From the sequence record KJ997912.1: DNA of 5,386 bases. The stretch is one strand, 5' to 3'. The translations under genes and the position numbers were made by a program. Shown here piece after piece: positions 1 to 5,386 of this stretch. The notes beneath the pieces were generated by a model. That model was not told the origin of the DNA, searched no databases, and worked only from the letters and a program-made list of their open reading frames with translations. Every line of letters begins with the position of its first letter. Position 1 is the first letter of the stretch. The stretch is from Enterobacteria phage MED1.

Positions 1-51
1 GAGTTTTATCGCTTCCATGACGCAGAAGTTAACACTTTCGGATATTTCTGA
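1..51 (+). CDS. B: Internal scaffolding protein B, C-terminal 16 codons plus stop (continuation of 5075..5386 across the circular junction); stop TGA 49-51
   Basis: Translation of 1-51 in frame 1 gives [16 protein letters not shown], the conserved phiX174 B C-terminus; the stop overlaps the K start (TGATG at 49-53). Confidence 0.85.
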
Positions 52-136
52 TGAGTCGAAAAATTATCTTGATAAAGCAGGAATTACTACTGCTTGTTTA
101 CGAATTAAATCGAAGTGGACTGCTGGCGGAAAATGA
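1..136 (+). CDS. A: Replication initiator protein A (and A*), C-terminal segment; continuation across the circular junction of the ORF that runs off the window end at 5386 (position 1 is the third base of the junction codon CAG); stop TGA at 134-136
   Basis: Frame continuous with the 3981..5386 ORF when the ends are joined; translation ...[46 protein letters not shown] matches the phiX174 A C-terminus as I recall it; the stop overlaps the gene C start (ATGA at 133-136). Confidence 0.85.
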
Positions 137-221
137 GAAAATTCGACCTATCCTTGCGCAGCTCGAGAAGCTCTTACTTTGCGACCTTTCGCCATCAACT
201 AACGATTCTGTCAAAAACTGA
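51..221 (+). CDS. K: Protein K (56 aa, small nonessential membrane protein), overlapping the end of A and the start of C
   Basis: ATG 51-53 to TGA 219-221; translation [56 protein letters not shown] matches phiX174 K as recalled. Absent from the ORF track, presumably because it is below the length cutoff. Confidence 0.85.
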
Positions 222-393
222 TGCGTTGGATGAGGAGAAGTGGCTCAATATGCTTGGCACGTTCGTTAAGGACTGGTTTAGATATGAGTCACATTTTGTT
301 CACGGTAGAGATTCTCTTGTTGACATTTTAAAAGAGCGCGGATTATTATCTGAATCCGATGTAGTTCAACCATTAATAGGTAAAAAATCATGA
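133..393 (+). CDS. C: Protein C (86 aa; DNA maturation, switch from RF replication to ssDNA synthesis/packaging)
   Basis: ATG 133-135 (ATGA overlap with the A stop) to TGA 391-393 (ATGA overlap with the D start). The ORF track starts at 115, but that codon is GTG; the canonical start is the ATG at 133 ([11 protein letters not shown]...). Confidence 0.9.
320..358 (+). promoter_or_regulatory. Promoter pD (sigma70-type) inside gene C, driving the D-E-J-F-G-H late transcript
   Basis: -35 TTGACA at 320-325, 18-bp spacer, -10 TATTAT at 344-349; expected transcription start about 356-358, consistent with the known pD position in phiX174. Confidence 0.6.
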
Positions 394-848
394 GTCAAGT
401 TACTGAACAATCTGTACGTTTCCAAACCGCGCTGGCTTCTATCAAGCTGATTCAGGCTTCTGCTGTTCTGGATTTAACCGAAGATGATTTCGATTTTCTG
501 ACGAGTAATAAAGTTTGGATTGCTACTGACCGTTCTCGCGCTCGTCGCTGTGTAGAGGCTTGCGTCTATGGTACATTGGACTTTGTGGGATACCCTCGCT
601 TTCCTGCTCCTGTTGAGTTTATTGCTGCCGTCATTGCTTATTATGTTCATCCCGTCAACATTCAAACGGCCTGTCTCATCATGGAAGGCGCTGAGTTTAC
701 GGAAAACATTATTAATGGCGTCGAGCGTCCGGTTAAGGCCGCTGAGCTGTTCGCGTTTACCCTGCGTGTACGCGCAGGAAACACTGACGTTCTTACTGAC
801 GCAGAAGAGAACGTTCGCCAAAAATTACGCGCAGAAGGAGTGATGTAA
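390..848 (+). CDS. D: External scaffolding protein D (152 aa)
   Basis: ORF 390..848; translation [22 protein letters not shown]... is, as far as I can recall, identical to phiX174 D; start overlaps the C stop (ATGA), stop overlaps the J start (TAATG). Confidence 0.95.
   Translation: MSQVTEQSVRFQTALASIKLIQASAVLDLTEDDFDFLTSNKVWIATDRSRARRCVEACVYGTLDFVGYPRFPAPVEFIAAVIAYYVHPVNIQTACLIMEGAEFTENIINGVERPVKAAELFAFTLRVRAGNTDVLTDAEENVRQKLRAEGVM
568..843 (+). CDS. E: Lysis protein E (91 aa; MraY inhibitor), fully embedded in gene D in the +1 frame
   Basis: ATG 568 with AGAGG at 554-558 upstream; translation MVHWTLWDTLAFLLLLSLLLPSLLIMFIPSTFKRP... matches the phiX174 E N-terminal transmembrane domain including the LLLPSLL proline; the C-terminal half carries several substitutions versus the reference as recalled. 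Confidence 0.9.
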   Translation: MVHWTLWDTLAFLLLLSLLLPSLLIMFIPSTFKRPVSSWKALSLRKTLLMASSVRLRPLSCSRLPCVYAQETLTFLLTQKRTFAKNYAQKE

Positions 849-964
849 TGTCTAAAGGTAAAAAACGTTCTGGCGCTCGCCCCGGTCGTCCGCAGCCGTT
901 GCGAGGTACTAAAGGCAAGCGTAAAGGTGCTCGCCTCTGGTATGTAGGTGGTCAACAATTTTAA
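848..964 (+). CDS. J: DNA-binding / packaging protein J (38 aa, highly basic)
   Basis: ATG 848-850 to TAA 962-964; AGGAG at 836-840; translation MSKGKKRSGARPGRPQPLRGTKGKRKGARLWYVGGQQF matches phiX174 J. Confidence 0.9.
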   Translation: MSKGKKRSGARPGRPQPLRGTKGKRKGARLWYVGGQQF

Positions 965-969
965 TTATA

Positions 970-983
970 GGGGCTTCGGCCCC
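970..983 (+). terminator. J-F intergenic stem-loop GGGGC-UUCG-GCCCC (leaky terminator TJ / mRNA stabilising hairpin)
   Basis: Perfect 5-bp GC stem 970-974/979-983 closing a UUCG tetraloop 975-978; no following U-tract, consistent with an inefficient terminator; the gene F ribosome-binding site GAGG lies just downstream at 990-993. Confidence 0.55.
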
Positions 984-1000
984 TTACTTGAGGATAAATT

Positions 1001-2284
1001 ATGTCTAATGTTCAAACTGGCGCACAACGTATGCCGCATGACCTTTCCCATCTTGGCTTCCTTGCTGGTCAGATTGGTCGTCTTATTACCATTTCAACTA
1101 CTCCGGTTATCGCTGGCGACTCCTTCGAAATGGACGTCGTGGGCGCTCTTCGTCTTTCTCCATTGCGTCGTGGCCTTGCTATTGACTCTACTGTAGACAT
1201 TTTTACTTTTTATGTCCCTCATCGTCATGTTTATGGTGAGCAGTGGATTAAGTTTATGAAGGATGGCGTTAAAGCCGCTCCGCTCCCGACCGTTAACACT
1301 ACTGGTAATATTGACCATGCCGCTTTTCTTGGCACGATTAACCCTGATACCAATAAAATTCCTAAGCATTTGTTTCAGGGTTATCTGAATATCTATAACA
1401 ACTATTTTAAAGCGCCGTGGATGCCTGACCGTACCGAGGCTAACCCCAATCAGCTTAATGAAGATGATGCTCGCTATGGTTTCCGTTGCTGCCATCTTAA
1501 AAACATTTGGACTGCTCCGCTTCCTCCTGAGAGTGAGCTTTCTCGCCAAATGACGACTTCTACCACGTCCATTGACATTATGGGTCTGCAAGCTGCTTAT
1601 GCTAATTTGCATACTGACCAAGAACGTGATTACTTCATGCAGCGTTATCGTGATGTTATTTCTTCATTTGGAGGCAAAACTTCTTATGACGCTGACAACC
1701 GTCCTTTACTTGTCATGCGCTCTAATTTCTGGGCATCTGGCTATGATGTTGATGGAACTGACCAAACGTCGTTAGGCCAGTTTTCTGGTCGTGTTCAACA
1801 GACCTATAAGCATTCTGTGCCGCGTTTCTTTGTTCCTGAGCACGGCACTATGTTTACTCTCGCGCTGGTTCGTTTCCCGCCTACGGCGACTAAAGAGATT
1901 CAGTACTTGAATGCTAAAGGTGCTTTGACTTATACCGATATTGCTGGCGACCCTGCTTTGTATGGTAACTTGCCGCCGCGTGAAATTTCTATGAAGGATG
2001 TTTTTCGTTCTGGTGATTCTTCTAAGAAGTTTAAGATTGCCGAGGGTCAATGGTATCGTTATGCGCCTTCTTATGTTTCACCTGCATATCACCTGCTTGA
2101 AGGCTTCCCATTTATTCAGGAACCGCCTTCCGGTGATTTGCAAGAACGCGTACTTATTCGCCATCATGACTATGACCAGTGTTTCCAGTCCGTTCAGTTG
2201 TTGCAGTGGAATAGTCAGGTTAAATTTAATGTGACCGTTTATCGCAATCTGCCGACCACTCGCGATTCAATCATGACTTCGTGA
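1001..2284 (+). CDS. F: Major capsid protein F (427 aa)
   Basis: ORF 1001..2284 with GAGG 7 nt upstream; translation MSN.QTGA.RMPHDLSHLGFLAGQIGRLITISTTPVIAGDSFEMD... is near-identical to phiX174 F with scattered substitutions. Confidence 0.97.
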   Translation: MSNVQTGAQRMPHDLSHLGFLAGQIGRLITISTTPVIAGDSFEMDVVGALRLSPLRRGLAIDSTVDIFTFYVPHRHVYGEQWIKFMKDGVKAAPLPTVNTTGNIDHAAFLGTINPDTNKIPKHLFQGYLNIYNNYFKAPWMPDRTEANPNQLNEDDARYGFRCCHLKNIWTAPLPPESELSRQMTTSTTSIDIMGLQAAYANLHTDQERDYFMQRYRDVISSFGGKTSYDADNRPLLVMRSNFWASGYDVDGTDQTSLGQFSGRVQQTYKHSVPRFFVPEHGTMFTLALVRFPPTATKEIQYLNAKGALTYTDIAGDPALYGNLPPREISMKDVFRSGDSSKKFKIAEGQWYRYAPSYVSPAYHLLEGFPFIQEPPSGDLQERVLIRHHDYDQCFQSVQLLQWNSQVKFNVTVYRNLPTTRDSIMTS

Positions 2285-2315
2285 TAAAAGATTAAGTGTG
2301 AGGTTATAACGCCGA

Positions 2316-2343
2316 AGCGGTAAAAATTTTAATTTTTGCCGCT
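2316..2343 (+). terminator. F-G intergenic long hairpin (terminator TF; core of the PriA / n-prime primosome assembly site used for complementary-strand synthesis)
   Basis: AGCGGTAAAAATT (2316-2328) pairs with AATTTTTGCCGCT (2331-2343), with one G-U wobble; smaller GC hairpins flank it (CCG-AAG-CGG at 2312-2320, GCG-AAG-CGC at about 2359-2367). The F-G intergenic region of phiX174 is the known n-prime recognition site. Confidence 0.5.
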
Positions 2344-2394
2344 GAGGGGTTGACCAAGCGAAGCGCGGTAGGTTTTCTGCTTAGGAGTTTAATC

Positions 2395-2922
2395 ATGTTT
2401 CAGACTTTTATTTCTCGCCATAATTCAAACTTTTTTTCTGATAAGCTGGATCTCCGTTCTGTTACTCCAGCTTCTTCAGCACCTGTTTTACAGACACCTA
2501 AAGCTACATCGTCAACGTTATATTTTAATGAGTTGATGGTTAACGCTGGTAATGGTGGTTTTCTTCATTGCATTCAGATGGACACATCTGTCAACGCCGC
2601 TAATCAGGTTGTTTCTGTTGGTGCTGATATTGCTTTTGATGTCGACCCTAAATTTTTTGCCTGTTTGGTTCGCTTTGAGTCTTCTTCGGTTCCGACTACC
2701 CTCCCGACTGCTTATGATGTTTATCCTTTGGATGGTCGCCATGATGGTGGTTATTATACTGTTAAGGATTGCGTGACTATTGACGTTCTTCCCCGTACGC
2801 CGGGCAATAATGTTTATGTTGGTTTCATGGTTTGGTCTAACTTTACCGGTACTAAATGCCGCGGATTGGTTTCGCTGAATCAGGTTATTAAAGAGATTAT
2901 TTGTCTCCAGCCACTTAAGTGA
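2395..2922 (+). CDS. G: Major spike protein G (175 aa)
   Basis: ATG 2395 with AGGAG at 2383-2387; the ORF track's 2350 start is an in-frame upstream extension without an RBS; translation [18 protein letters not shown]... matches phiX174 G with a few substitutions. Confidence 0.95.
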
Positions 2923-2930
2923 GGTGATTT

Positions 2931-3917
2931 ATGTTTGGTGCTATTGCTGGCGGTATTGCTTCCGCTCTTGCTGGCGGCGCCATGTCTAAATTGTTTGGAG
3001 GCGGTCAAAAAGCCGCCTCCGGTGGCATTCAAGGTGATGTGCTTGCTACCGATAACAATACTGTAGGCATGGGTGACGCTGGTATTAAATCTGCCATTCA
3101 AGGCTCTAATGTTCCTAACCCTGATGAGGCCGCCCCTAATTTTGTTTCTGGTGCTATGGCTAAAGCTGGTAAAGGGCTTCTTGAAGGTACGTTGCAGGCT
3201 GGCACTTCTGCCGTTTCTGATAAGTTTCTTGATTTGGTTGGACTTGGTGGCAAGTCTGCCGCTGATAAAGGAAAGGATACTCGTGATTATCTTGCTGCTG
3301 CATTTCCTGAGCTTAACGCTTGGGAGCGTGCTGGTGCTGGTGCTTCCTCTGCTGGTATGGTTGACGCCGGATTTGAGAATCAAAAAGAGCTTACTAAAAT
3401 GCAACTGGACAATCAGAAAGAGATTGCCGAGATGCAAAATGAAACTCAAAAGGAGATTGCTGGCATTCAGTCGGCGACTTCCCGTCAGAATACGAAAGAC
3501 CAAGTATATGCACAAAATGAGATGCTTGCTTATCAACAAAAGGAGTCTACTGCTCGCGTTGCGTCTATTATGGAAAACACCAATCTTTCCAAGCAACAGC
3601 AGGTTTCTGAGATTATGCGCCAGATGCTTATACAGGCTCAAACGGCTGGCCAGTATTTTACTAACGACCAAATCAAAGAGATGACTCGCAAGGTTAGCGC
3701 TGAAGTTGACTTGGTTCATCAACAGACGCAGAATCAGCGGTATGGTTCTTCTCATATTGGTGCTACTGCTAAGGATATTTCTAATGTCGTCACTGATGCT
3801 GCTTCTGGTGTGGTTGATATTTTTCATGGTATTGATAAAGCTGTTGCCGACACTTGGAACAATTTCTGGAAAGACGGTAAAGCTGATGGCATTGGCTCTA
3901 ATTTGTCTAGGAAGTAA
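2931..3917 (+). CDS. H: Minor spike / DNA pilot protein H (328 aa)
   Basis: ORF 2931..3917; RBS GAGGTGA at 2921-2927 overlaps the G stop; Gly-rich N-terminus ([25 protein letters not shown]) and Q/E/K-rich central coiled-coil region typical of phiX174 H. Confidence 0.95.
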
Positions 3918-3926
3918 CCGTCAGGA

Positions 3927-3955
3927 TTGACACCTTTCTAATTGTGTGATTTCAT
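3927..3955 (+). promoter_or_regulatory. Candidate promoter pA in the H-A intergenic region
   Basis: -35 TTGACA at 3927-3932; TG at 3947-3948 followed by a weak -10 TTTCAT at 3950-3955 (extended -10 arrangement, 17-bp spacer). Position agrees with the known pA of phiX174; exact start site not determinable from sequence. Confidence 0.45.
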
Positions 3956-3980
3956 GCCTCCAAACTTTGGAGGCTTTTTT
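3956..3980 (+). terminator. Rho-independent terminator TH: GCCTCCAAA/TTTGGAGGC hairpin followed by a T6 run, immediately before the A start codon
   Basis: Inverted repeat 3956-3964 / 3966-3974, then TTTTTT at 3975-3980; the 3-prime arm contains GGAGG (3969-3973), which also serves as the Shine-Dalgarno sequence of gene A (ATG 3981). Confidence 0.6.
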
Positions 3981-5386
3981 ATGGTTCGTTCGTATTACCC
4001 TTCTGAATGTCACGCTGATTATTTTGACTTTGAGCGTATCGAGGCTCTTAAACCTGCTATCGAGGCCTGTGGCATTTCTACTCTTTCCCAATCTCCGATG
4101 CTTGCCTTCCATAAGCAGATGGATAACCGCATCAAGCTCCTTGAAGAGATTTTGTCATTTCGTATGCAGGGCGTTGAGTTCGATAATGGTGATATGTATG
4201 TCGACGGTCATAAGGCTGCTTCTGATGTTCGTGATGAGTTTGTGTCTGTTACTGAAAAGTTAATGGATGAATTGGCACAATGTTACAACGTGCTCCCCCA
4301 ACTTGATATTAATAACACTATAGACCACCGCCCCGAAGGGGACGAAAAATGGTTTTTAGAGAACGAGAAGACGGTTACGCAGTTTTGCCGTAAGCTGGCT
4401 GCTGAACGCCCTCTTAAGGATATTCGAGATGAGTATAATTACCCCAAAAAGAAAGGTATTAAGGATGAGTGTTCAAGATTGTTGGAGGCCTCCACTATGA
4501 AATCGCGTAGAGGCTTTACTATTCAACGTTTGATGAATGCAATGCGTCAGGCTCACGCTGATGGCTGGTTTATCGTTTTTGACACTCTTACGCTGGCTGA
4601 TGACCGCTTAGAGGCGTTTTATGATAATCCCAATGCTTTGCGTGACTATTTTCGTGATATTGGTCGTATGGTTCTTGCTGCCGAGGGTCGTAAAGCTAAT
4701 GACTCACACGCCGACTGCTATCAGTATTTTTGTGTGCCTGAGTATGGTTCAGCTAATGGCCGTCTTCATTTCCATGCGGTGCATTTTATGCGGACACTTC
4801 CTACAGGTAGCGTTGACCCTAATTTTGGTCGTCGGGTACGCAATCGCCGCCAGTTAAATAGCTTGCAAAACACGTGGCCTTATGGTTACAGTATGCCTAT
4901 CGCAGTTCGCTACACGCAGGACGCTTTTTCACGTTCTGGATGGTTGTGGCCTGTTGATGCTAAAGGTGAGCCGCTTAAAGCTACCAGTTACATGGCTGTT
5001 GGCTTCTATGTGGCTAAATACGTTAACAAAAAGTCAGATATGGACCTTGCCGCTAAAGGTCTAGGAGCTAAAGAATGGAACAACTCACTAAAAACCAAGC
5101 TGTCGCTACTTCCCAAGAAATTATTCAGAATCCGAATGAGCCGCAACTTCGGGATGAAAATGCTCACAATGACCAACCTGTCAATGGAATGCTTAATCCA
5201 GCTTACCAAGCTGGGTTACGACGCGACGCCGTTCAACCAGATATTGAAGCAGAACGCAAAAAGAGAGATGAGATTGAGGCTGGCAAAAGTTACTGTAGCC
5301 GACGTTTTGGCGGCGCAACCTGTGACGACAAATCTGCTCAAATTTATGCGCGCTTCGATAAAAATGATTGGCGTGTCCAACCTGCA
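3981..5386 (+). CDS. A: Replication initiator protein A (HUH rolling-circle endonuclease; 513 aa in total), N-terminal about 468 codons; the ORF runs off the window end and finishes at 1..136
   Basis: ATG 3981 preceded by GGAGG; no in-frame stop to position 5386; HUH motif HFHAVH encoded at 4767-4784; catalytic tyrosine pair in VGFYVAKYVNKK (Tyr codons 5007-5009 and 5019-5021, residues 343 and 347). Confidence 0.95.
   Translation, partial: MVRSYYPSECHADYFDFERIEALKPAIEACGISTLSQSPMLAFHKQMDNRIKLLEEILSFRMQGVEFDNGDMYVDGHKAASDVRDEFVSVTEKLMDELAQCYNVLPQLDINNTIDHRPEGDEKWFLENEKTVTQFCRKLAAERPLKDIRDEYNYPKKKGIKDECSRLLEASTMKSRRGFTIQRLMNAMRQAHADGWFIVFDTLTLADDRLEAFYDNPNALRDYFRDIGRMVLAAEGRKANDSHADCYQYFCVPEYGSANGRLHFHAVHFMRTLPTGSVDPNFGRRVRNRRQLNSLQNTWPYGYSMPIAVRYTQDAFSRSGWLWPVDAKGEPLKATSYMAVGFYVAKYVNKKSDMDLAAKGLGAKEWNNSLKTKLSLLPKKLFRIRMSRNFGMKMLTMTNLSMECLIQLTKLGYDATPFNQILKQNAKREMRLRLAKVTVADVLAAQPVTTNLLKFMRASIKMIGVSNL
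4299..4328 (+). other. Viral-strand origin of replication (30-nt A-protein recognition sequence); nick site between G4305 and A4306
   Basis: CAACTTGATATTAATAACACTATAGACCAC at 4299-4328 is the canonical phiX174 ori, located inside gene A at the same coordinates as in the reference. Confidence 0.85.
4497..5386 (+). CDS. A*: A* protein (341 aa in total): internal in-frame translation initiation within gene A; continues to 1..136
   Basis: In-frame ATG at 4497 preceded by GGAGG at 4484-4488 (8-nt spacing); corresponds to the known A* start of phiX174 (MKSRRGF...). Confidence 0.75.
   Translation, partial: MKSRRGFTIQRLMNAMRQAHADGWFIVFDTLTLADDRLEAFYDNPNALRDYFRDIGRMVLAAEGRKANDSHADCYQYFCVPEYGSANGRLHFHAVHFMRTLPTGSVDPNFGRRVRNRRQLNSLQNTWPYGYSMPIAVRYTQDAFSRSGWLWPVDAKGEPLKATSYMAVGFYVAKYVNKKSDMDLAAKGLGAKEWNNSLKTKLSLLPKKLFRIRMSRNFGMKMLTMTNLSMECLIQLTKLGYDATPFNQILKQNAKREMRLRLAKVTVADVLAAQPVTTNLLKFMRASIKMIGVSNL
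4850..4900 (+). promoter_or_regulatory. Approximate location of promoter pB (inside gene A, upstream of B)
   Basis: Weak sigma70-like elements only (TTGCAA at 4863-4868, then TTACAG/TACAGT around 4886-4892); placed mainly from knowledge that pB lies about 190 nt upstream of B in phiX174. Exact hexamers uncertain. Confidence 0.3.
5075..5386 (+). CDS. B: Internal scaffolding protein B (120 aa in total), embedded in gene A in a different frame; continues at 1..51
   Basis: ATG 5075 with AGGAG at 5063-5067; translation MEQLTKNQAVATSQE... with the conserved C-terminus after the wrap; the N-terminal third carries several substitutions versus the reference as recalled. Confidence 0.9.
   Translation, partial: MEQLTKNQAVATSQEIIQNPNEPQLRDENAHNDQPVNGMLNPAYQAGLRRDAVQPDIEAERKKRDEIEAGKSYCSRRFGGATCDDKSAQIYARFDKNDWRVQPA

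Follow-up and report, generated by a model that had tools for sequence, protein, structure and literature searches.

A 5386-nt phiX174-like genome matches the wild isolate MED1 in its proteins and differs from the reference strain at 4% of its sites

With high confidence, the genome analysed here (the window, that is, the whole stretch of 5386 nt) is a naturally occurring member of Sinsheimervirus phiX174 and most probably the deposited phage MED1, the identity being evident at the protein level. Of its proteins, A, B, C, E, F, G and H are each matched exactly by a MED1 accession in the range AII27891-AII27901, from a contig that is likewise 5386 nt long. D, J and K have the common phiX174 sequences, and no MED1 accession is among the matches listed for these three. 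No difference from MED1 came to light; the deposited genome may still depart from the window at silent or intergenic sites, and the name MED1 is used below for the window in this sense. In the NCBI taxonomy MED1 has taxid 1508658 and is filed under Sinsheimervirus phiX174. It was described by Labrie et al. 2014 (Appl Environ Microbiol 80:6992-7000) and was reportedly isolated from an industrial E. coli process that had failed. The MED1 genome is thus already known, and because it is that of a deposited and published isolate, it holds no new biology.

The exact MED1 A protein was additionally found in Logan/ENA assemblies, on two contigs of which the longer has 5495 nt, so that phages like MED1 have turned up on at least one further occasion. 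This recurrence is what speaks for a different source of the window, namely a phage closely related to MED1 but distinct from it, with the same proteins and other silent sites, that came from another sample. We consider such a relative very unlikely, given that the 5386-nt MED1 contig is the sole recorded source of the exact E, F, G and H proteins and that no contig in the viral, metagenome and genome collections contains an exact 29-mer spanning alleles private to MED1 in gene G. Among the gene positions of the metagenome, Logan and ENA assemblies, none was recorded for the exact G, F, H or E proteins, and the complete genomes of E. coli contained no match to the MED1 genome.

Divergence from the phiX174 reference

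The genome was aligned with MAFFT to NC_001422.1 and 18 further genomes of the clade, giving an alignment of 20 genomes in total. Between MED1 (5386 nt) and the reference there are 215 substitutions and no indels, an identity of 96.01% (96.0% by megablast), in line with the initial annotation, which had described many substitutions and no indels against phiX174. Transitions and transversions stand at 170:45. Independent wild isolates in the alignment also carry 185 of the 215 non-reference alleles. Private to MED1 are 30 alleles when it is set against the other 19 genomes, a panel whose natural isolates have 0-49 private alleles each, and 27 when a 24-genome panel is used. All 10 intergenic differences are common to wild isolates, none of the private changes of MED1 in the 20-genome alignment is intergenic, and no private allele was found that breaks an overlapping frame or a regulatory element. 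A scan of the genome against Rfam at the gathering threshold returned no family.

All eleven open reading frames (A, A*, B, K, C, D, E, J, F, G and H) are intact, with an ATG start, a terminal stop and no internal stops, and all lie on one strand at the coordinates of the phiX174 reference. Relative to phiX174, amino-acid changes number 5 in A, 9 in B, 1 in C, 9 in E, 12 in F, 8 in G and 4 in H. The D and J proteins are the same as in phiX174, as had been recognized from the sequence at the outset, and so is K. Most of the nucleotide change had likewise been judged to be silent, and Nei-Gojobori counts of synonymous versus non-synonymous differences agree (47/6 in A, 27/0 in D, 42/13 in F and 30/4 in H). 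For A, C, D, J, F and H the dN/dS ratio lies at 0-0.08 and for G at 0.32; values of about 1 are confined to B and E, the embedded genes. Because 185 of the 215 alleles occur in wild isolates, transitions outnumber transversions, dN/dS is low in most genes and the replication origin is unchanged, the divergence is evolutionary and a product of neither error nor design.

Genes and regulatory elements

Coordinates in this section are those of the window, and every feature lies on the plus (+) strand. Gene A, for the replication initiator (513 aa), occupies 3981..5386 and runs over the circular junction to 1-136; the A* protein starts at an internal ATG at 4497. The shared 3' end of A and A* (1..136) overlaps with B, which ends at 51, and with K and C, which start at 51 and 133. 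The A protein, an exact match to AII27891.1 of phage MED1, differs from that of phiX174 by G42A, A180T, T257S, T402M and G435A, with a dN/dS of 0.03. Gene B, for the internal scaffolding protein (120 aa), is embedded in A in another frame at 5075..5386 and continues to 51. Its dN/dS of 1.3 is high because most of the B changes are silent in A. Eight of its nine changes fall within residues 16-43, in keeping with the altered N-terminus that had been pointed out earlier, and the protein is an exact match to gpB of both ID34 and MED1. Gene K (51..221; 56 aa) is as in phiX174 in nucleotides and protein alike, and gene C (133..393; 86 aa) has the single change A77V, its exact protein being found in WA4, NC11, WA11 and MED1.

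The 30-nt origin of viral-strand synthesis, CAACTTGATATTAATAACACTATAGACCAC (4299..4328), is the same as that of phiX174 in the alignment; the annotation of NC_001422 places the origin position at 4306. In the spacer between H and A, a terminator-like hairpin, GCCTCCAAACTTTGGAGGC, is followed by a T run (3956..3974). Its stem is intact, and the loop differences from phiX174 at 3965-3966 are common to most wild isolates.

The structural genes begin with J, for the DNA-binding core protein (848..964; 38 aa), which has four silent differences. The J-F spacer contains a G+C-rich hairpin, AGGGGCTTCGGCCCCT (969..984), unchanged from phiX174, which we take, from established phiX174 knowledge, to be the J terminator; the nearby differences at 967-968 are common to ID34, NC1, NC7 and NC11. 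Gene F, for the major capsid protein (1001..2284; 427 aa; dN/dS 0.08), has the 12 changes I4V, E9Q, A46V, N91K, T93A, Y103N, E151Q, Q154E, T178S, H217R, L243F and V319A, of which A46V, Y103N and T178S are private to the lineage. The two F motifs singled out in the initial annotation are both present, MSNVQTGAQR for MSNIQTGAER through I4V and E9Q, and KAAP for NATP through N91K and T93A. Changes that it had noted in G and H were also recovered. Gene G, for the major spike protein (2395..2922; 175 aa; dN/dS 0.32), has eight, V19D, T21R, D45N, S46E, T48M, A83V, N113D and A152G, with V19D, T48M, A83V and A152G private to the lineage. Against the first 19-genome panel, five of the six private nucleotide changes in G are non-synonymous, and a Fisher test comparing G with the remainder gave p = 0.016-0.026. 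Gene H, for the DNA pilot or minor spike protein (2931..3917; 328 aa; dN/dS 0.04), has S70N, L99F, D137G and T234I. The exact sequences of F (AII27899.1), G (AII27900.1) and H (AII27901.1) have no database source besides MED1.

The D promoter and the lysis gene

The D promoter (320..349) has a -35 element, TTGACA, at 320-325, the position given in PMC4825663, and a -10 element at 344-349; a promoter scan scored 11/12 matches. Two of the lineage-private alleles in the 20-genome alignment fall within it, T339C in the spacer and C346T in the -10 element, the latter turning TACTAT into TATTAT and so bringing it nearer to consensus. Both are silent in gene C. Gene D, for the external scaffolding protein (390..848; 152 aa), has 27 nucleotide differences from phiX174 and no amino-acid difference. 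Embedded in it is gene E, for the lysis protein (568..843; 91 aa), which has the nine changes R3H, N43S, K57R, N60S, K81R, C83F, V84A, V88A and R89Q. The last five form the cluster behind the altered E C-terminus that had been remarked on in the sequence. Among database entries MED1 is the sole source of the exact E sequence (AII27897.1).

The R3H change in E results from the private substitution G575A, which is identical at the nucleotide level to the laboratory 'Epos' allele pos6 (PMC4825663, PMC3324380). The Epos allele raises E synthesis and abolishes the need for host SlyD (PMC4825663, PMC3324380). It is conceivable, if rather unlikely, that G575A and the C346T change in the D-promoter -10 element are adaptive and not neutral, and that together they tune lysis and late-gene expression to the industrial production host in which MED1 reportedly bloomed. 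Settings of this kind would include a host that lacks SlyD or has it in altered form, or conditions that favour fast lysis. If true, lysis timing would here have adapted in nature in a way that has so far been seen in the laboratory, and the private non-synonymous changes in G would mirror a matching adaptation to the LPS of that host. The occurrence of Epos R3H together with a D-promoter -10 change in a phage that reportedly wrecked an industrial E. coli fermentation is the one point of possible experimental interest in this genome.

Alternative origins of the genome

The initial annotation had argued for a natural or an experimentally evolved relative of phiX174. The natural part of this statement stands; the evolved part is contradicted by the 185 wild alleles and the synonymous excess. 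A laboratory phiX174 line from experimental evolution would account for G575A, which laboratory selection on slyD-deficient hosts is known to yield. Sampled laboratory lines of phiX174, however, keep 98.9-99.8% identity to the reference, whereas MED1 differs from it at 4% of sites; its changes are mostly silent, and laboratory selection would not recreate the alleles that it has in common with wild isolates elsewhere. We therefore regard descent from a laboratory line as exceedingly improbable.

Just as improbable is a phiX174-like genome that was designed or generated by AI, for instance with the Evo genome language model. The Evo designs have 93.0-98.8% identity to natural genomes and start with the same bases. 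The 184 differences (96.6% identity) that separate MED1 from its nearest genome in the phage collection fall inside the 67-392 range of the viable designs, and a model trained on this clade would also reuse natural alleles as a mosaic. However, MED1, published in 2014, has GenBank/UniRef entries for exactly these A, B, C, E, F, G and H proteins, and because it was described in that year, before generative genome design, we reject a designed origin. The room that the initial annotation had left for a designed variant is thereby closed, the proteins being on record for a natural isolate. In addition, eight MED1-specific k-mers were absent from the accessible part of the supplement to the designs. 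The natural genomes nearest to the Evo designs are phiX174, NC41, NC5, NC51 and S13, and the designs have lengths of 99%-105% of that of phiX174, with J and the regulatory elements as mutational hotspots; MED1, in contrast, has exactly 5386 nt, an unchanged J protein and no private intergenic change. Two further kinds of construct were considered and rejected. A consensus or reconstructed ancestor of the clade is ruled out by the 27-30 private alleles, and a codon-recoded or attenuated construct by the distribution of mostly natural polymorphisms over all genes, together with the amino-acid changes.

Phage records fall into bands of identity to the phiX174 reference. Laboratory, evolved and control records are mostly found among the 129 with at least 99% identity, and wild isolates occupy the 95-99% band (32 records), within which MED1 lies at 96.0%. 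Membership in the control was tested at a threshold of at least 99.9% identity to NC_001422, the level at which the initial annotation, too, would have pointed to control-DNA contamination; MED1, with its 215 differences, is far below it. In PLSDB, the only copies of this phage type are phiX174 copies in Vibrio, Edwardsiella and Cellulomonas plasmid entries, and such copies, filed as plasmids of unrelated bacteria, probably stem from the sequencing control. IMG/VR holds a single phiX-clade contig. Contamination with the Illumina PhiX control or ordinary laboratory phiX174 has a negligible probability as the source of the window, for although length, start coordinate and gene order are those of the reference, MED1 is separated from it by 215 substitutions, the plasmid-filed copies are just 96.0-96.1% identical to MED1, and the IMG/VR contig has 6 differences from phiX174 and 215 from MED1. 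The earlier view that this is not the Illumina spike-in is borne out by the position of MED1 outside the band of at least 99%. Not every phiX174-shaped sequence of 5386 bases that turns up in a data set is spike-in contamination, and a simple identity threshold parts control DNA (at least 99%) from wild relatives (~96%).

Predicted life cycle and evolution

As a natural phiX174-clade phage, MED1 is expected from knowledge of the family to work as phiX174 does, and the functions assigned to its genes are inferred on the same basis. The window is a complete circular ssDNA genome, written in the register of the phiX174 reference, with its eleven overlapping genes on one strand. Protein A would initiate rolling-circle replication at the conserved 30-nt origin, procapsids would be assembled with the scaffolds B and D, the capsid would consist of the proteins F, G, H and J, and lysis would be brought about by E. 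The 4% divergence from the laboratory strain has built up in the wild under purifying selection, with recombination within the clade and with faster protein change in the spike gene G.

Comparison with known phages

In a neighbour-joining tree of the 20 genomes, MED1 forms its own long branch beside WA11, PJNS001, WA4, NC1/NC7, ID34 and NC11. Its pairwise distances to the first 19 panel genomes are 184-270 differences, and the clade's own range reaches 296. The closest DNA match in the phage collection is PJNS001, at 96.6% identity. Along the arc 4164->906, which is non-structural, MED1 is closest to PJNS001 (0-12 differences per 600 nt), while the structural genes F, G and H are nearer to the NC51/phiX174/S13 side; the genome therefore has a mosaic pattern. 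The comparisons proposed in the initial annotation, namely alignment to S13 and to wild isolates, dN/dS per gene and a phylogenetic tree, thus place MED1 inside the clade and under mostly purifying selection. We took as the species cut-off a whole-genome nucleotide identity of ~95% or more to the exemplar phiX174, and MED1, at 96.01% without indels, falls within Sinsheimervirus phiX174; it also has the other characters of the species, the 11-gene overlapping layout, the 30-nt origin and a position inside the clade tree. Phages of the G4-like and alpha3-like groups are only 60-80% identical to MED1.

The phiX174 reference (NC_001422.1 / J02482) and the Illumina control share with MED1 the length, the register, the 11-gene layout, the origin and the D, J and K proteins, but the reference is 215 substitutions (4.0%) away. 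The wild isolates ID34, NC1/NC7, NC11, NC51, WA4 and WA11 (DQ0798xx), PJNS001 and SGF3 belong to the same species-level clade; PJNS001 is a Salmonella phage and SGF3 a Shigella phage. Jointly, the wild isolates carry 185 of the 215 non-reference alleles of MED1, yet none of the first 19 panel genomes comes closer to it than 184 differences. S13 (M14428) is of the same clade and has the same gene set; it differs from MED1 at 227 sites and, with 113 differences, is much nearer to phiX174 than MED1 is.

Divergence from phiX174 and gene integrity

Base 1 of the 5386-base window is conventional phiX174 coordinate 1 (GAGTTTTATC...), and a megablast search against 50,697 phage records yielded full-length matches to the phiX174 clade only, with Salmonella phage PJNS001 at the top (96.6%, no record higher) and the phiX174 reference, NC_001422.1, at 96.0%. 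The window was aligned with the reference, S13, PJNS001 and 16 wild isolates (ID1 to WA11), all rotated to a common origin. Compared with phiX174, it carries 215 substitutions (170 transitions and 45 transversions) and no indels, and all eleven genes retain the coordinates, ATG starts and stops of the reference. Amino acid differences number 5 in A, 9 in B, 1 in C, 9 in E, 12 in F, 8 in G and 4 in H, with none in K, D or J. These measurements confirm in full the initial annotation, which had described a phiX174 relative with many substitutions and no indels: the D and J proteins are unchanged as it proposed, its examples in F are present (I4V, E9Q, N91K and T93A), both the E C-terminal and B N-terminal clusters of changes exist, and identity to the reference is 96.0% rather than the more than 99.9% that it had associated with control DNA.

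Match to phage MED1 and alternative origins

In an exact-sequence look-up across ~15 billion sequences, all ten proteins queried were found. Proteins A, B, C and E match accessions AII27891.1, AII27893.1, AII27895.1 and AII27897.1 of Enterobacteria phage MED1, and F, G and H match its AII27899.1, AII27900.1 and AII27901.1, respectively, with the contig given as 5386 long; D, J and K have the widespread phiX174 sequences. For E, F, G and H, the exact sequences returned accessions from MED1 only. At the level of its protein sequences the window is identified as MED1 (taxid 1508658, placed under Sinsheimervirus phiX174 in the NCBI taxonomy), a natural member of the phiX174 species that is already known and deposited, and that was published in 2014 (Labrie et al., Appl Environ Microbiol 80:6992), reportedly from an industrial E. 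coli process that had failed.

A sister isolate of MED1 with identical proteins is an improbable substitute for MED1 itself, although the exact A protein was also found on Logan/ENA assemblies (2 contigs, the longer of 5495 nt), a hint that a MED1-like phage has been detected independently a second time. An AI-generated, phiX174-like design from the Evo genome language model is very unlikely. Published Evo designs share 93.0-98.8% identity with natural genomes, but the proteins of the window are those of an isolate published in 2014. In addition, the window is exactly 5386 long, with an unchanged J protein and no private alleles (those present in no other genome of the comparison panel) in its intergenic sequence, whereas the designs vary in length and have J and the regulatory elements as hotspots. 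The nearest neighbours of these designs are phiX174, NC41, NC5, NC51 or S13, and window-specific k-mers were not found in the examined part of the Evo paper's sequence table.

Laboratory-evolved phiX174 is excluded, as laboratory lines sampled from a ranking with the reference as query are 98.9-99.8% identical to it, against 96.0% for the window, and 185 of the 215 non-reference alleles occur in at least one of 18 other natural genomes. Control-DNA contamination is likewise excluded by the 215 substitutions, set against the 129 phage records with at least 99% identity to the reference in the reference-query search. The 95-99% band (32 records), in which the window falls, is occupied by wild isolates. 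The substitution count, the shared wild alleles and the 96.0% identity all agree with the earlier proposal of a natural or experimentally evolved relative rather than spike-in phiX, and favour the natural one. The divergence is evolutionary, and error, laboratory evolution and design are not its source.

The searches also returned phiX174-like sequence filed elsewhere. Six 5386-bp "plasmids" in PLSDB (NZ_AP028091.1, NZ_AP024880.1, NZ_AP026443.1, NZ_AP024868.1, NZ_AP024892.1 and NZ_OR345925.1), filed under Edwardsiella, Vibrio, Cellulomonas and E. coli, are 96.0-96.1% identical to the window from end to end, as phiX174 is; by this identity, measured against the window, they are almost certainly sequencing-control contamination filed as plasmids. 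Full phiX174-like genomes with the same identity to the window occur in phage records bearing the names of unrelated hosts, namely MZ417522.1 (Mycolicibacterium phage J1, 24,953 bp, in which the genome is embedded in a 25-kb record), MT947439.1 (Protaetiibacter phage SSC1) and PP417747.1 (ST5386), and probably reflect spike-in contamination or chimeric assembly. Finally, Salmonella phage SP14 (PP501405.1) is a 5513-bp phiX174-clade genome whose placement under Caudoviricetes is apparently a mis-classification; the circular genome may have been assembled with overlapping ends, giving the extra ~127 bp.

Natural variation and selection

Private alleles number 30 in the first panel, in which natural isolates range from 0 to 49, and drop to 27 once SGF3, SP14, alphaalpha, GR8 and one IMG/VR contig are added. 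All 10 intergenic differences (in 217 bases) also occur in wild isolates; most panel genomes agree with the window in the H-A spacer, where it is the reference that stands apart. The 30-nt origin matches the reference exactly, and both hairpin stems, J-F and H-A, are undamaged.

Nei-Gojobori dN/dS against phiX174 is 0.03 in A, 0.02 in C, 0 in D and J, 0.08 in F, 0.04 in H and 0.32 in G, and reaches ~1 in B and E only; these two genes are nested in A and D in other frames and take up changes most (B) or all (E) of which leave the protein of the enclosing gene unaltered. Such a pattern is what long-term purifying selection is expected to produce in a genome with overlapping genes. The MED1 paper reportedly gives >95% identity to phiX174 and finds G, B and E enriched in missense variation across the clade, the latter in agreement with the dN/dS values obtained here.

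Private changes

Protein-altering private changes lie almost entirely in virion proteins: A46V, Y103N and T178S in F, V19D, T48M, A83V and A152G in G, and L99F in H. Of the six changes in gene G (2395-2922) that are private against the first panel, five are non-synonymous; in the rest of the genome 7 of 24 are (Fisher p = 0.026, falling to 0.016 with the double change at F codon 303 counted as silent). Since 5:1 is also the ratio that neutrality predicts for G, the excess may stem from relaxed constraint instead of positive selection.

The private change G575A, at window position 575, produces R3H in lysis protein E and is silent in D codon 62; A is found at this position in none of 23 other clade genomes, and T in ID22 and WA11. 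The laboratory Epos allele pos6 carries the identical nucleotide change; through faster E synthesis that allele allows phiX174 to plate on slyD-deficient E. coli, and it re-arose during experimental adaptation to slyD hosts (PMC4825663, PMC3324380). The D promoter, inside gene C, carries private T339C (spacer) and C346T (-10), both silent in C and at positions invariant across all other panel genomes; C346T converts the -10 element from TACTAT to TATTAT, nearer the consensus TATAAT. That G575A and C346T are adaptive in the industrial host of MED1 is speculation.

Mosaic ancestry

Neighbour joining puts the window on a long branch of its own, within the half of the clade containing WA11, PJNS001, WA4, NC1/NC7, ID34 and NC11, opposite phiX174, S13 and NC51. 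In 600-nt windows, the non-structural arc (~4200 through the numbering origin to ~900) is nearest PJNS001, NC11 or ID34, with 0-12 differences, and F, G and H are nearest NC51, phiX174 or S13. A maximum-chi-square scan of the triplet of window, PJNS001 and phiX174 placed breakpoints near 907 and 4163 (maximum chi-square 48-55, with 0 of 200 permutations equally extreme), with PJNS001-like to phiX174-like sites at 67:8 outside the 907-4163 arc and 61:89 inside. Positions 4164-5386 plus 1-906 are PJNS001/ID34/NC11-like, and the F-G-H arc (907-4163) leans toward NC51/phiX174/S13. These sequence patterns are most simply read as the product of recombination among members of the phiX174 clade, at some point in the past of these lineages.

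Comparison with phiX174

With its gene set intact and its origin and terminator hairpins conserved, the window is an ordinary phiX174-type microvirus. By analogy with phiX174, protein A would start rolling-circle replication, the F/G/H/J virion would be assembled on B/D scaffolds, the capsid and spike surface would recognise LPS, and E would lyse the host via MraY inhibition.
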